Below are positions 48,801 through 63,800 of a stretch of 64,000 nucleotides of DNA, one piece after another; positions within the stretch are counted from its first letter, which is position 1; each line of letters opens with the position of its first letter. A program made the position numbers. Source of the stretch: Escherichia coli (GTDB lineage: Bacteria > Pseudomonadota > Gammaproteobacteria > Enterobacterales > Enterobacteriaceae); the NCBI RefSeq assembly GCF_050920415.1, contig NZ_CP169309.1; one strand, 5' to 3'.

Positions 48801-51800
48801 TTCACATACCTGGGTGATTCAGGCACTGGAATTTGTATGGCAAACACAGATGAACAAAAGAAAGCCATAAGGAAGATAAAATTTCGCACAGGACTTCCTC
48901 GCTTAATGAGCATTAGCATTCTGGCTAAAATCTATTGTTGGGGTTTTACTCACAGCGGCGACATCATCCGGTAAATAATTTTTCTTCGGTGTGTAATCCA
49001 TGACTTTTGCGGTTAACACTGCGGGGAATTTGCGGATAGTGACATTATATTGTTCGATGGCTTTAATATATCTTCCTCGCGCAACGGCAATTCGATTTTC
49101 ACTTCCTTCGAGCTGTACCATCAAATTTTGATAGAGTTCCTGGGCCTTTAGCTCAGGGTAACGTTCACTAATTATCGTTAACTGACCGAGAGTGCGAGAC
49201 ACCTGCGCCTGGGCCTGTTGCCAGACTTGTAATTTTTGTTCATCCCCCGGAGTTTGCTGAAGATCGCTACTGGCGCGATTAGCCTGACTACGTGCCAATG
49301 TTACGGCTTCCAGTACCTCTTGTTCATGGCTGGAATAACCTTTAATACTAGCGACAAGATTAGGAATAAGATCGGCGCGACGTTGATATTGATTTAATAC
49401 CTCAGACCAGGAAGCGTTAACCTGCTCATCATAGGTTTGAATATCGTTATATCCACAGCCTGATAAATTGAAAATAAATATAATTACGATGAATATTCTG
49501 AGCATGGTTAAATTCCTTTTAATTAATTCCTTAAAACATAATACGCCACTTCATTTTATTCTTTATGATCTAATCCACTTTTTGCCTTAAACCTGCCTGT
49601 AACAGAATGTTAATAAGACATGATTGTTGTGGCAGGATCTGCAATAATTAACAATTATCCACTTCACAGAGAATGCTATGCAGTACCCGATTAACGAGAT
49701 GTTCCAGACCCTGCAAGGTGAGGGTTACTTTACCGGCGTCCCCGCCATTTTTATTCGTTTACAGGGATGCCCGGTCGGCTGTGCCTGGTGCGACACCAAA
49801 CACACCTGGGAAAAGCTTGAGGATCGGGAAGTCTCCCTTTTCAGCATTCTGGCGAAGACCAAAGAGAGTGATAAGTGGGGGGCGGCGAGCAGTGAAGATT
49901 TGCTGGCTGTCATTGGTCGTCAGGGATACACCGCGCGGCATGTGGTGATTACGGGTGGTGAGCCTTGCATTCATGATTTGCTGCCACTGACTGACCTGCT
50001 CGAAAAGAACGGTTTTAGCTGCCAGATCGAAACCAGCGGTACTCATGAAGTACGCTGCACGCCGAATACCTGGGTTACCGTATCGCCAAAGCTGAACATG
50101 CGCGGCGGCTATGAAGTGTTGTCACAGGCACTGGAGCGAGCCAACGAAATCAAGCATCCAGTGGGACGCGTACGTGATATTGAAGCACTGGATGAACTAC
50201 TGGCAACGCTGACCGATGATAAACCACGAGTCATTGCACTGCAGCCAATTAGCCAGAAGGACGATGCCACACGTTTGTGCATTGAAACCTGTATTGCGCG
50301 TAACTGGCGTTTATCGATGCAAACACATAAATATTTAAATATTGCCTGATTAAACATTTATAAGCGTTATAAATGGGTGGAACCTGTAAAGACTTCCACT
50401 CATTTATATTCTTTGTCGCCTCTGAAAAAACTCCATTTTGCCCATTCTGGACTAATCATTATCATTCTCTACAAATTCTCTGGCGTTAATTTTTCGTTGG
50501 AGTGAAAATTATTGCAGTGAAGTTTGGTAGATTTTAGTGGGTATAGAGTTATTTTAAATATTTACTTTTTTAATCAATGGATTAAGTGTTCTTTAACATA
50601 ATGGATGTGTTGTTTGTGTGATCCTGTAAAGTTGGTAGATTGTGACTGGCTTAAAAAATCATTAATTAATAATAGGTTATGTTTAGAGAGTTCCCCACGT
50701 CAGCGGGGATAAACCGCTATACGAAGTTATTAGGTCCGAAGAGGAGTTGAGTTCCCCACGTCAGCGGGGATAAACCGTTTACGTGTTATCGCGCACCGGC
50801 GACGGTGTGGAGTTCCCCGCGCCAGCGGGGATAAACCGATTCAGCAAATAGCGAATTTCATAAATATGATGTGTTCCCCGCGCCAGCGGGGATAAACCAC
50901 CATATAACCCGTTATCTCTTTCTCAAGTTTTTATATTAGCTGTACTTGTAATAAGCAACATATCCACATAACACCTCATGTTCAAAATAGTTCCCCATGC
51001 CAGATAAGTTCACAATTATCGATACAAAAAATCAAATTTAATCAAAGTGTTATATGTATAATCCTTAAACCGTTAAGAAATTTTAATATATTATTTTTTT
51101 AATATTAATTAATGCCTGTTAATTTTTTCTTTAGAATAACAGTGTATTTTTTAAGCTTGTTATTCATTGATTAAGTAATAAATCTGGAAGTTTGTCTTTG
51201 TTTTGAGGCTAATGAGTGGTTTTACATAACCGCCTCTATACGCTGTTGATGAATAGTTCTTATGAATAAAGATATCCAGTTCATACTTTAAGTGAAAATT
51301 GATAAAGTGCGATTCGTATTGTCTTTTATTCTAAAGACATCGAGTGTAGTTAATATTCCTTGTAAAAACAGGGATAAACCGAACTAGTTAAAGTTTTTAT
51401 TATGTTCCCTGCATCAGCGGGGATAAACCGGACTTGTTATCATTTTTTAAGTTGTCGAACTTATGTTCCCCGCGCCAGCGGGGATAACCATTCAGGTATG
51501 TTCAGGCCGGGCAGTTTCCCGCCCGGTCTTCCTCACTTACGCATTCGACCAGCTCTGGATCGAATCTGCATTCCCCAACTCACCATGCATCACTTCATAC
51601 GATTTTTTCAGGATCACATCAGTGTGTTTGGTTAGGTCTTTGAAAATGCCTTTATTCATCGCGTCGTAGCGTTTGGCATTGCTCTCAATCGGCATAAAGA
51701 TATCTTTCACGCGAACCATTTTGTCGACAGCCGTTGCGTAATCCGGGTATAGCCCCAGACCTACCGCTGTATTAATCGCGGCCCCCAGACTTGCGCAACC

Positions 51801-60800: not shown

Positions 60801-63800
60801 CACAGCAAACGGCAGGTGCCACACTCCAGACAATTACGATAATCAACGTGCAAATCACCTTCCGGTGTGAGCGAAAAAAGACCAGCCGGACAAGCGTTAA
60901 TCAACCGTTCTGCCGTCTGGCGCTCAACGGAGTCAGCCGGAACAATATGTGGCGCATCAGCAGCGCGCCAGAGATTACGGGCTACAGACATCGAATACTC
61001 CTGACAACATCGCCCGCCAGATGCCACAGGCCATGACGACGTAAATGACGCCAGAGCAACTGGCGCAGCGGCGGAACAGGTTTATCACCCTGATCCCATA
61101 AATCGCGGGAAATATCCTGCATTAACGCAGGCCACTTACGGTACCAGCCCGGGCGTTGCAAAAGCGCCGGAACATGCTGATAGCGCTGTAGAACATCCCA
61201 CAGCAGGCTGCGCTCTACGTTGTAATGATAAAGCGGAAACAGATTTTGCGGCTCGCGGTGCTGGCAGGCGCTTATCAGCGTTTGTGCCGCCGCCTGTGCG
61301 CCAGCCAGCGCCATATCCATGCCGCGCACGGAAATTCCGGTATTGACGCAACTGCGCAACGCATCGCCCAGCAGCAGCCAGCCGTTACCGGCGTATTGCA
61401 CCGGCATACTGTGCAAGCCACCTTCTGGCACCAGATGCGCACCATACTCCAGTGATTCCGTGTTTTTGATAAGCGGGCGCACTGCCGGATGCGTTTTAAA
61501 GCGAGCCAGCAGCTCGCTTGCCGGAACACGACTTTGCGTAAGTGAAGAGAGCGGGCAAACAATCCCTAACGAGAGCGTTTGTTGATTAGTATAAAGAAAT
61601 GCGCCGTCGGGTAAGTCATCACAGATTCCGCCGCTGAACAGCAACGCTGCGCCTTCGTTATTCTCCAGATGAAAACGTTCTTCAATAGCGGATGTTTCCA
61701 GTGACAGAACTTCTTTAATCCCCAACGCCATCACTTCGCCAGCAGGACGAGTCACTAACCCGTGACGCTCAGACAGGACGCTGTTGGCACCTTCTGCCAG
61801 CACCACATAACGGGCGCGGAGAATATCGTCACCACAAATAACGCCGCAAACTCTGCCTTTTTCTTCATACAGTGCATCCACCGTCGTACCGGGGATGCAT
61901 TCGACACCTTCTTTTTCGGCTTCGGCAACCAGCCACGGATCGAATCGCGCACGTAATACACTCCAGGATTCACCGCCGGGCTGTAAGCTGGAAAACGTCG
62001 TTGCGCCATCCGGCGTTAGCAGAGAAAGACTTTCGTGAGTGATGCGTCGTTCAAGAGGCGCGGTCAGGTGAAACTGAGGGAGGAGTTCCGCGAGCGCATG
62101 GGTGTATAAACGCCCGCCGGAAAGGTTTTTACTGCCGGGAATTTCAGCGCGTTCCAGTAACAGAACGGATAAACCTGCCCGCGCGCAGCGTAAAGAACAA
62201 GCGGTGCCTGCTATACCCGCACCAATAATAATAATGTCGCAGTCGTCTTCCATGTCATGCCCCAGATATCCAGAGCGCAACACCCTAACATAGCGTTACT
62301 TAAGGGAAATTGACCGCCGACACACTCTTATCATTCGCCGCGATAGATGCAACCTGCGGTGCAGGTTTCTTTCACCATAACCGCACTTAACAGCGGAACA
62401 ACCGGTTTAACCTGATCCCAAATCCATTTTGCTAAAACCTCGCTGGTCGGGTTTTCCAGGCCAGGAATATCATTGAGATAATAGTGATCGAGGCGATCAT
62501 AGGTTGGTTTAAATGCCGCTTTCAGTTCAGCGAAATCGATAATCCAGCCCGTATGCGGATCGACTTCCCCGGTAATTTCCAGTCGCACCATAAAGGAATG
62601 CCCGTGCAGGCGACCACATTTATGTCCTTCCGGGACGTGTGGTAAGCGGTGAGCGGCTTCGAAGGTGAAATCTTTAAATAACGTGGTGGACATCATAATT
62701 TCTCTACATGACGATAAAACCGCCGTAGAGTACCGGAAAGGCTGTTTTTTCGCATTATCTAAAACGACTTTGTTGCGCAAAATCGCTGATTTATCTTAAT
62801 GATTGGTTAAATTCATTTGTTTTTCATTGGGTTGGTTAATCTGTTTTGTTGTTAAAGACTATTGCTAAAACAGGTTAGTCGATTTGGTTATTAGTTATCG
62901 CTATCCCGTCTTTAATCCACACCGTTCACCCCGTTAACCTTACCTTCTCTTCTGTTTTATGGGCGCTGACAGGGCGCAGAAACAGCTTTGCTTACTGGAA
63001 CATAACGACGCATGACGACACAGGTCCCACCTTCCGCGTTGCTTCCGTTGAACCCGGAGCAACTGGCACGCCTTCAGGCGGCCACGACCGATTTAACTCC
63101 CACCCAGCTTGCCTGGGTTTCTGGCTATTTCTGGGGCGTGCTCAACCAACAGCCTGCTGCGCTTACAGCGACGCCAGCGCCCGCCCCCGCCGCAGAAATG
63201 CCGGGTATAACTATTATCTCCGCTTCGCAAACCGGCAATGCGCGCCGGGTTGCTGAAACATTACGCGATGATTTATTAGCGGCAAAACTGAACGTTAAGC
63301 TGGTGAACGCGGGCGACTATAAATTCAAACAAATCGCCAGCGAAAAACTGCTCATCGTGGTGACGTCAACGCAAGGTGAAGGGGAACCGCCGGAGGAGGC
63401 CGTCGCGCTGCATAAGTTCCTGTTCTCCAAAAAAGCGCCGAAGCTGGAAAACACCGCGTTTGCCGTGTTTAGTCTCGGCGATAGCTCTTATGAATTTTTC
63501 TGCCAGTCCGGAAAAGATTTCGATAGCAAGCTGGCGGAACTGGGCGGTGAACGCCTGCTCGACCGTGTCGATGCCGATGTTGAATACCAGGCCGCTGCCA
63601 GCGAGTGGCGCGCCCGCGTGGTAGATGCTCTTAAATCGCGTTCGCCTGTCGCGGCACCTTCGCAATCCGTCGCTACTGGCGCGGTAAATGAAATCCACAC
63701 CAGCCCGTACAGCAAAGACGCGCCGCTGGTGGCGAGCCTTTCGGTTAACCAGAAAATTACTGGGCGTAACTCTGAAAAAGACGTTCGCCATATCGAAATT

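Follow-up and report, generated by a model that had tools for sequence, protein, structure and literature searches.

The ygc locus of Escherichia coli lies in a stretch of 64,000 nucleotides from contig NZ_CP169309.1, hereafter termed the window, and each of its two divergent transcripts, yqcE-ygcE and ygcWUSRQ, begins with a conserved leader RNA that is predicted to fold by default into a strong terminator. This leader co-occurs with ygcP, a gene of the GlpP antiterminator family, and the locus is probably, albeit far from certainly, a counterpart of the Gram-positive glp regulon for a different, organic-cation glycerol-like substrate. The genes themselves, and their lack of an assigned function, were already known and had been correctly described beforehand in a reading of this DNA made without database searches (the sequence-only reading). 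New here are the leader RNA, its pairing with a GlpP-family gene, the regulon so defined, the active site of YgcU, which is of the alkyl-dihydroxyacetone phosphate (alkyl-DHAP) synthase (AGPS) type, and the suggestion of an organic-cation substrate.

At the head of both divergent operons, a CRP site is followed by a leader of ~70 nt in which formation of a strong intrinsic terminator is opposed by a weak antiterminator hairpin (Table 1). A terminator scan located a 19-bp G+C-rich stem followed by nine T residues at 54565-54615, before ygcW. Seven nucleotides are common to the 5' hairpin and the 5' arm of the terminator and, therefore, the two folds are mutually exclusive. A covariance model (R1) was built from 30 leader sequences and covariation was assessed on 68 aligned copies. 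The 7-bp antiterminator helix is 93.6% paired in these copies, with 26 double-change cells and exchanges of G-C to A-U and of U-A to C-G; none of 500 shuffles scored as high, and slid-register controls were 18-55% paired. The 17-bp terminator helix is 89% paired, with compensatory changes in 10 pairs. A single alignment column (A or G) covaries with its partner in each of two helices, as is expected if the antiterminator and terminator folds exclude each other. The full ygcW leader has a folding energy of -34.2 kcal/mol (z -6.35) and the full yqcE leader one of -22.3 kcal/mol (z -3.85), whilst the nascent 39-nt hairpins are calculated at only -6.7 and -1.4 kcal/mol, respectively. Given such weak nascent hairpins and such strong full-leader terminators, the antiterminator would need help to form, and these calculated energies fit a protein-dependent switch.

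This family of leader RNAs is not represented in Rfam; in a search of Rfam 15, the window and a leader from Halobacillus gave only chance-level matches (22-24 bits, compared with gathering scores of 60-100). RefSeq likewise places no feature on the leader, and the yqcE leader is found in 5063 of 5426 E. coli genomes. In the rest of the 64-kb window, R1 gave only weaker, opposite-strand matches overlapping the two leader copies, and upstream of ygcO-ygcN no R1 match was found near 62254-62330.

The distribution of the leader extends far beyond E. coli. R1 recovers the same two copies (ygcW and yqcE) in K-12 MG1655, together with matches in Proteobacteria (including Vibrionaceae), Bacillota and Actinomycetota. 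The terminator 5'-arm sequence (A)GAGAAAAGUAACUUCC is present upstream of the ygcW-like SDR gene in all Enterobacterales loci and is also found in Photobacterium, Sporomusa, Geosporobacter, Dethiosulfatibacter, Halobacillus, Thalassobacillus, Virgibacillus and metagenome-assembled genomes of Bacillota. On its 5' side stands AGUUACU-AGAG-N4-6, the AGUUACU strand of which is complementary to an AGUAACU within that arm. Firmicutes have a -10 box ~10 nt upstream of this strand, at which the transcript therefore starts. The first gene after the leader is most often an SDR gene (34 copies) or a YqcE-like MFS gene (24 copies, including those of Photobacterium and Prauserella), followed by a BCCT transporter (6) and YgcU (4), with one copy each before an OpuAC-type ABC operon and an MttB-family methyltransferase operon. 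The megaplasmid of S. clavuligerus carries one R1 copy between its GlpP-like gene and its SDR gene. As the leader directly precedes the BCCT, OpuAC and MttB genes, these are placed under the same switch and are thus more than mere neighbours of the module.

Transcription of yqcE-ygcE and of ygcWUSRQ is driven by a divergent pair of promoters, each with a CRP site. The TGTGAgagtaaTCACG site is centred 41.5 bp before the point at which the yqcE leader is predicted to start, and the TGTGAttacgaTCACA site 41.5 bp upstream of 54547, 2 nt before the AGUUACC of the ygcW leader; both spacings appear class-II-like. The TGTGAttacgaTCACA site has been footprinted in vitro, with an estimated dissociation constant of 1.7 nM (PMC12871828), CRP binding in the yqcE/ygcW intergenic region was predicted by PhyloScan (PMC1794230) and yqcE-ygcE is listed as Crp-activated (PMC8085971).

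The candidate partner of the leader is YgcP, which covers the full PF04309 profile with a score of 210 bits and has structural matches to PDB 3kts (9e-29) and 1vkf. Amongst 62 loci, a ygcP-like gene and the leader are both present in 34 and both absent from 20, with the gene alone in one and the leader alone in seven; loci of Desulfobacterota keep the enzymes and are missing both. The sequence-only reading had taken ygcP for an RNA-binding, antiterminator-type regulator, and this view is now supported by a covarying leader that stands before both operons and co-occurs with the gene. YgcP thus appears to be a true antiterminator for which the leader has a variant form. Three loci, from Serratia microhaemolytica, Enterobacter sp. 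ENT03 and Izhakiella (L034, L030 and L043, respectively), have both leaders and no ygcP-like open reading frame (ORF) in the 20 kb fetched; in these, the gene for the regulator may have decayed or be located at another site.

The closest precedent for such a system is the glp regulon of Bacillus subtilis, in which each of PglpD, PglpT and PglpFK is described as combining, in its 5' untranslated region (5'UTR), a terminator with a site bound by GlpP (PMC9604022). For this comparison the glpD 5'UTR, as given in the supplement of that paper, was used. Its fold pairs a -40 kcal/mol terminator with a -6.1 kcal/mol hairpin, and it shares with the ygc leader a short 5' strand (GGUC in glpD), a GAG-rich loop (CUGAGAUGAGGAGA in glpD, AGAGAUAAUGAGAAA in the E. 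coli ygc leader) and a 3' hairpin strand that falls within the 5' arm of the terminator. The regulators of both systems belong to PF04309, both regulated sets contain a transporter, an FGGY kinase and a flavin adenine dinucleotide (FAD)-dependent dehydrogenase, and the inducer, which is the kinase product in B. subtilis glp, is probably the kinase product in ygc as well. Despite these parallels, YgcP is only ~30-33% identical to the GlpP-like proteins of Bacillus and Listeria, the ygc dehydrogenase is an AGPS-like VAO-family enzyme with an electron-transfer flavoprotein (ETF) in place of GlpD, ygc has an extra SDR and organic-cation-type transporters, and catabolite control is exerted by CRP rather than CcpA. 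The leader sequence is also distinct: no R1 match above 18 bits is adjacent to a GlpP homologue located beside an ABC transporter in Bacillus sp. N5-665, and none at E <=0.01 to that of P. acidaminophilum, so that the R1 motif is a specific feature of the YgcP subfamily. As the kinase and transporters differ, the ligand of YgcP could be a phosphorylated compound other than glycerol-3-phosphate. In catabolic operons, the BglG/SacY/LicT proteins and their ribonucleic antiterminator (RAT) elements also employ a protein-stabilised short hairpin that overlaps a leader terminator at its 5' arm; however, these are PRD/CAT proteins, unrelated to the TIM-barrel PF04309, and are controlled by phosphorylation through the phosphotransferase system, in contrast to the ligand binding expected of the ygc type.

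The genes under this control form a conserved module. A YgcU profile scan was carried out with one genome per species, 80 loci were fetched and their ORFs clustered; counts are given per 81 loci. YgcU is accompanied by a YgcW-like SDR in 75 loci, a YgcE-like FGGY kinase in 69, ETF alpha in 60, ETF beta in 57, a YgcP-like protein in 54, a YqcE-like transporter in 47 and a YgcS-like transporter in 41, with the ETF pair directly following YgcU in 57-60. Less frequent companions are a FixC-like protein (35 loci, Enterobacterales only), a second VAO-type oxidase, FAD2 (17), and a BCCT transporter (14). The conserved core therefore consists of YgcP, SDR, FGGY kinase and YgcU, usually with the ETF pair; aerobic Bacilli and Streptomyces retain only P-SDR-kinase-YgcU, and the S. 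clavuligerus megaplasmid has a minimal P-SDR-YgcU-FGGY set. E. coli YgcU is 71-73% identical to its counterparts in Sporomusa, Alkalihalobacillus, Desulfobacula and Photobacterium (65-73% across phyla), and YgcU, YgcW and YgcE are together 65-85% conserved across phyla. In anaerobes, the second VAO-type oxidase, which has a GEHG motif, comes after the module, often with a second ETF pair (L005, 13187-16591; L064, 13246-16793; L069, 12192-15523), and the second ETF alpha of L005, the one case checked, has a faint N-terminal match to a ferredoxin domain in Pfam. This second oxidase/ETF set resembles LctBCD, which hints at a D-2-hydroxyacid step or product. A variant without adjacent ETF and FixCX occurs in L035, L036, L040, L049 and L050 (Erwinia/Pantoea type) and in L051 (SAR324). 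It carries an aldo-keto reductase, a Fae-like protein (formaldehyde-activating enzyme family), an aldehyde dehydrogenase and a LysR regulator, and in SAR324 the same aldo-keto reductase and Fae pair stands beside BCCT-SDR-YgcU-kinase.

YgcU is, by sequence, a VAO/PCMH-type flavoenzyme of the alkyl-DHAP synthase branch. Of the solved structures, AGPS comes closest (4bby, profile E 9e-56), ahead of glycolate oxidase (8e-37) and LctD (1e-25). The catalytic Arg, Tyr and His residues of AGPS handle a C1-substituted DHAP, and residues R262, Y398 and H438-440 of YgcU, invariant in 14 homologues, align with R419, Y578 and H615-617 of AGPS. YgcU hence shares the fold, the FAD domain and the catalytic Arg/Tyr/His-His-His set of AGPS (4bby, 2uuu). 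It has no N-terminal domain (YgcU has 484 amino acids compared with 658, and the alignment begins at residue 180 of AGPS) and no cap region of the kind that builds the lipid (fatty-chain) tunnel, residues 268-343 of YgcU being unaligned. Unlike AGPS, YgcU is bacterial and cytoplasmic, belongs to a catabolic CRP-controlled operon and is encoded beside an ETF, implying net redox chemistry. In this context, YgcU is proposed to be an ETF-dependent dehydrogenase of a phosphorylated intermediate. EHG is the metal-binding motif of ETF-dependent D-2-hydroxyacid dehydrogenases; YgcU has HHHG at this position, whilst its FAD2 paralogue has GEHG, and YgcU scores only 144 bits against GlcD TIGR00387 (cut-off 568). 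LctBCD (7qh2) and its relatives resemble ygc in having the gene for a VAO-family flavoenzyme beside an ETF pair, and the FAD2 and ferredoxin-domain ETF that accompany the module in anaerobes are likewise LctBCD-like. LctD itself differs from YgcU in the EHG motif that HHHG replaces and in its weaker match, and the comparison with LctBCD yielded no evidence for confurcation.

The remaining enzymes suggest what YgcU might act upon. YgcW scores 348.8 bits against NCBIfam KduD PRK06935, just below the cut-off of 369, and is nearest to KduD and gluconate 5-dehydrogenase, which oxidise a secondary alcohol adjoining a terminal CH2OH. YgcE falls below the NCBIfam equivalog cut-offs, its best models being XylB (xylulokinase) and AI-2 kinase and its nearest solved structure LsrK (5ya0, 4e-29); by analogy, it is proposed to make the phosphorylated inducer as the counterpart of GlpK. 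Together, these relationships suggest a conversion of X-CH2-CHOH-CH2OH to X-CH2-CO-CH2-OP or its reduced form. The sequence-only reading had proposed the oxidation of a phosphorylated intermediate through an ETF, and this gains support from the joint occurrence of SDR, FGGY kinase, YgcU and ETF genes across phyla and from the retention in YgcU of the phosphate- and enolate-handling residues of alkyl-DHAP synthase. It had also left the choice between electron-bifurcating and ETF-linked oxidation, of which the latter is the one supported here: ygcR and ygcQ exceed the gathering scores of PF01012 and PF00766, and YgcRQ is about equally distant from both kinds of ETF, its best PDB matches mixing bifurcating (LctC, 5ol2) and non-bifurcating (1efv, 1efp) proteins at similar E-values. 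YgcN just exceeds the ETFQO_UQ-bd cut-off (27.9 bits, cut-off 27.7) and reaches 376 and 356 bits against FixC-type NCBIfam models with cut-offs of 466 and 610, and YgcO reaches 77 bits against NCBIfam FixX (cut-off 166). This FixCX-like pair suggests a link from the chain to quinone in Enterobacterales. E. coli FixABCX and YdiQRST offer a parallel, as four-protein electron modules (ETF beta, ETF alpha, FixC-like and FixX-like) that are coupled to a substrate-specific pathway, and the fix genes serve carnitine, an onium compound. However, YgcN and YgcO remain under the NCBIfam FixC and FixX cut-offs, the ygc ETF and FixCX genes are in separate convergent operons and the partner enzyme is not an acyl-CoA dehydrogenase.

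With regard to the substrate, the 'polyol or sugar-like' compound of the sequence-only reading is probably too plain, as the co-regulated transporters belong to organic-cation and onium families. YgcS matches OCTN2 (9.4e-22) and OCT1/2 (~3e-21) in the PDB, with GlcP (7e-17) and XylE (5e-9) behind, and also the NCBIfam cation transporter model TIGR00898 (1.9e-39, below cut-off). YqcE has a weak match to the D-galactonate transporter family. The nearest solved relatives of the leader-regulated BCCT transporters carry trimethylamine, dimethylsulfoniopropionate, glycine betaine, choline or carnitine, and those of the OpuAC-type binding protein bind ergothioneine, choline, glycine betaine or carnitine. 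The MttB genes are accompanied by a corrinoid protein and a pterin methyltransferase, and genes for an Fae-like protein, an aldo-keto reductase and an aldehyde dehydrogenase occur in aerobic variants (Pantoea, Erwinia, SAR324). One module is thus served by three transporter families, unrelated to one another, in which most solved relatives carry organic cations or onium compounds; this points to a substrate with such a group, an assignment that we make with moderate confidence. Carnitine, choline, glycerophosphocholine, betaine-lipid head groups, nicotinamide riboside and dihydroxypropyl-trimethylammonium are neither supported nor excluded by the sequence. In L076 (6997-13948), the leader stands before an operon for an MttB-family methyltransferase, a PanB-like protein (ketopantoate hydroxymethyltransferase family), an OpuAC-type ABC transporter and a proline-racemase-family protein, a combination that no known pathway is reported to account for; L072 (10004-16605) belongs to the same observation. 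The start codon of ygcS is uncertain, since the gene is annotated with 469 amino acids here and 445 in K-12, where the start is 72 nt downstream, and a terminator-like hairpin (56989-57010) lies inside the longer 5' end.

In the favoured model, the substrate would be imported by YgcS and/or YqcE, and elsewhere by BCCT or OpuAC-type ABC transporters under the same leader. YgcW, as a KduD-like SDR, would oxidise the secondary alcohol adjoining a terminal CH2OH, and YgcE would phosphorylate the terminal hydroxyl to give a glycerol-3-phosphate- or DHAP-like intermediate. Binding of this intermediate to YgcP would stabilise the antiterminator hairpin and permit read-through, generating positive feedback through the YgcE product and YgcP, much as GlpK, glycerol-3-phosphate and GlpP do, with catabolite control supplied by CRP. 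YgcU would then oxidise the phosphorylated intermediate, or oxidatively cleave it at C1, and pass electrons to the YgcRQ ETF and, in Enterobacterales, onwards through YgcNO (FixCX-like) to the quinone pool. The model sets YgcS and YqcE (BCCT or OpuAC elsewhere) in parallel with the transporters GlpF and GlpT, the FGGY kinase YgcE with GlpK, YgcU with its ETF and FixCX with the FAD dehydrogenase GlpD, and YgcP with the antiterminator GlpP; the extra SDR, YgcW, has no glp counterpart. The substrate would most likely carry a trimethylammonium-like organic-cation or onium head group on a glycerol-like diol. A bolder form of this model, to which we attach a low probability, envisages a phylum-spanning pathway for a quaternary-ammonium or sulfonium glycerol derivative, with an AGPS-like, flavin-N5 oxidative cleavage of C1-X and a new class of GlpP-type riboregulator. 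Such a substrate might be a deacylated betaine-lipid or choline-linked head group, with X-CH2-CO-CH2-OP as the intermediate. If true, an onium moiety or trimethylamine would be released whilst triose phosphate entered glycolysis, amounting to a new enzymatic route and possibly a new source of trimethylamine in gut Enterobacteria.

A number of points weigh against the favoured model. The assignment of ygcP to the leader rests, at the level of sequence, on co-occurrence and a glpD-like design; the Fisher p of 1.7e-9 for the 62 loci is a statistic that ignores phylogeny and is uncorrected, and seven loci, mostly on truncated contigs, have the leader without a nearby ygcP. The evidence for an organic cation in E. 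coli itself is the remote similarity of YgcS to SLC22 (E ~1e-21), and YgcS also resembles aromatic-acid and sugar porters in NCBIfam, whilst YqcE resembles anion:cation symporters. The chemistry of AGPS is redox-neutral and the conserved residues thus do not prove YgcU to be a dehydrogenase. E. coli FixABCX delivers electrons to a reduction, and the direction of electron flow is not readable from sequence. Finally, we know of no natural compound that satisfies all of the constraints and of no growth phenotype.

Other explanations of the locus were also weighed. It could be a catabolic cluster of the usual kind, its substrate a sugar or polyol that is neutral or acidic (2-keto-3-deoxygluconate-like, a pentulose or a tetritol), with the betaine-type transporters of other taxa representing lineage-specific substrate switches that are uninformative for E. 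coli. The kinships of YgcW with KduD and gluconate 5-dehydrogenase, of YgcE with xylulokinase and gluconokinase, of YqcE with the galactonate family and of YgcS with sugar-porter models would all suit this scenario, as would the lack of BCCT and OpuAC genes in the Enterobacterales loci. Nevertheless, we consider it unlikely: the strong conservation of YgcU, YgcW and YgcE across phyla argues for a single chemistry, BCCT, OpuAC and MttB operons all stand behind this one leader and hence probably share its inducer, YgcS is nearer to OCTN2/OCT than to any sugar porter and no equivalog model is met by any of the ten proteins. A reversed chain, in which YgcNO and YgcRQ feed YgcU for a reduction such as a reductive C-N cleavage releasing trimethylamine, would parallel the support of crotonobetaine reduction by FixABCX in E. 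coli carnitine metabolism. It would account for a FixC/FixX-like pair and an ETF beside an onium-type transporter, as in the cai/fix system, for a regulon BCCT that is nearest to a trimethylamine transporter and for the adjacent MttB-family genes. However, YgcU is retained in aerobic Halobacillus and Streptomyces, where it has no ETF or FixCX dedicated to it, which suits a dehydrogenase with a general acceptor better than a reductase in need of a dedicated donor, and solved relatives that partner ETFs, e.g. LctD, are dehydrogenases; this direction of flow is, in our view, distinctly unlikely.

Another alternative concerns the leader, which might be a protein-independent small-molecule riboswitch, with YgcP, a TIM barrel, serving as an enzyme of the pathway. 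PF04309 proteins do have an enzyme-like TIM-barrel fold (1vkf and 3kts), and in E. coli ygcP shares a transcript with the redox genes ygcNO. Yet the variable element, a 7-bp stem with a ~15-nt loop, is too small for known aptamers, and the design matches the protein-dependent glpD leader. Furthermore, loci without ygcP, e.g. those of Desulfobacterota, are also without the leader although they keep the enzymes, and it is this linkage between leader and gene that makes an enzymatic role for YgcP improbable; we regard the riboswitch scenario as very unlikely.

The leader provides an experimental handle on the favoured model, as a reporter carrying the 70-nt element should respond only to the true substrate in the presence of ygcP and ygcE, which turns a problem of annotation into a simple screen. 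The findings also suggest that GlpP-type antitermination, so far a feature of the Gram-positive glycerol regulon, operates in E. coli on a different ligand. If the organic-cation assignment holds, the locus matters for how choline-, carnitine- and betaine-like compounds are turned over in the gut, in soil and in marine environments. There is also a real chance that the locus hides new chemistry.

No functional assignment for the ygc genes, and no description of a ygc-type cluster in other organisms, was found in full-text searches with gene names and gene-content keywords, and the literature search likewise returned no substrate, phenotype or regulatory mechanism for the cluster. In RefSeq, all ten K-12 products are named 'putative', and none of the ten proteins reaches the cut-off of an NCBIfam equivalog model. 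A 2026 paper refers to ygcU as 'an additional FAD-binding oxidoreductase' (PMC13012123). Incidental reports, which do not define function, are a 1.7-fold induction of ygcU by D-serine, the naming of YgcR as a MazF-related 'death gene' (PMC2646832) and a higher yield of nicotinamide mononucleotide from nicotinamide on YgcS overexpression (PMC8601175). The statement in the sequence-only reading that no function is established therefore holds for the literature and annotation searched.

Table 1. Positions of leader elements, CRP sites and genes of the ygc locus in the window
Feature	Position	Strand	Description
ygcE	51537-53015	-	FGGY_N/FGGY_C kinase domains (Pfam)
yqcE	53042-54319	-	MFS_1 (Pfam); first gene of yqcE-ygcE operon
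yqcE leader RNA element	54341-54412	-	R1 cmsearch 57.9 bits, E 1.7e-8
yqcE leader terminator	54391-54352; U-tract 54351-54344	-	Ends ~24 nt before yqcE ATG
yqcE leader antiterminator strand	54406-54400	-	AAUUACU; purine-rich loop next
CRP-like site	54441-54456	.	TGTGAgagtaaTCACG; read from sequence; yqcE side
Perfect-consensus CRP site	54498-54513	.	TGTGAttacgaTCACA; read from sequence; ygcW side
ygcW leader RNA element	54543-54617	+	R1 cmsearch 82.2 bits, E 1.7e-13
ygcW leader antiterminator hairpin	54549-54577	+	AGUUACC ... GGUAACU
ygcW leader terminator	54565-54606 (stem-loop); U-tract 54607-54615	+	Ends ~22 nt before ygcW ATG
ygcW	54638-55423	+	SDR, adh_short (Pfam)
ygcU	55493-56947	+	FAD_binding_4 and FAD-oxidase_C (Pfam)
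ygcS	56969-58378	+	Sugar_tr/MFS (Pfam)
ygcR	58356-59135	+	ETF beta (Pfam ETF)
ygcQ	59132-59992	+	ETF alpha (Pfam ETF_alpha)
ygcP	60139-60714	-	PF04309 G3P_antiterm, E 2e-62
ygcO	60731-60991	-	FixX-like ferredoxin; Fer4 (Pfam)
ygcN	60982-62253	-	FixC-like; ETFQO ubiquinone-binding domain (Pfam)

The gene content and flanks given in the sequence-only reading were borne out. ORF calls and RefSeq annotation concur on ten intact genes at 51537-62253, with domain content confirmed by Pfam; for ygcW, ygcQ, ygcO and ygcN, the longest ORF extends beyond the annotated start. The window is chromosomal E. coli DNA. This region is 100% identical to its counterpart in NZ_CP169399.1, an E. coli sequence in which all ten genes are free of pseudogene flags, and at least 80% of it is found in one place in 5060 of 5426 complete E. 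coli genomes (93%). In Enterobacteriaceae, the ygc cluster forms an island between queE and queD. Beyond ygcN are queD (62331-62696) and cysJ (from ~63012), and on the other side the 1.19-kb gap between queE and ygcE, which has no annotation here, is labelled 'CRISPR' in most E. coli genomes identified by BLAST. In this gap (50350-51536), Tandem Repeats Finder detects a repeat with a period of 61 nt (50688-50838), which represents a small CRISPR array, type I-E in style, with 2.5 repeat units. The closest genome, in which the ygc genes are 100% identical, matches the gap at only 98.7% identity in two aligned pieces and has no RefSeq feature there; its queE coordinates are shifted by 61 nt, equivalent to one repeat-spacer unit.

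Relative to K-12, the strain is only 92-98% identical over 49678-64000, including the queE, queD and cysJ flanks, so that the divergence extends beyond the ygc genes, and half of the complete E. coli genomes are only 90-95% identical to the ygc locus. Upstream of queE, at ~46000-49505, K-12 has yqcG and ygcG, and the annotation of the closest genome (L001, 2466-6030) shows three pseudogenes with TPM domains (internal stop, frameshift and truncation) and an intact LemA-family gene. A palindromic element resembling REP/BIME sequences (gcctgataagacgcg...cgcatcaggc) occupies 60040-60112, where ygcQ and ygcP converge, and gives a weak match to Rfam naRNA4 (29.4 bits, compared with a gathering score of 59.5).

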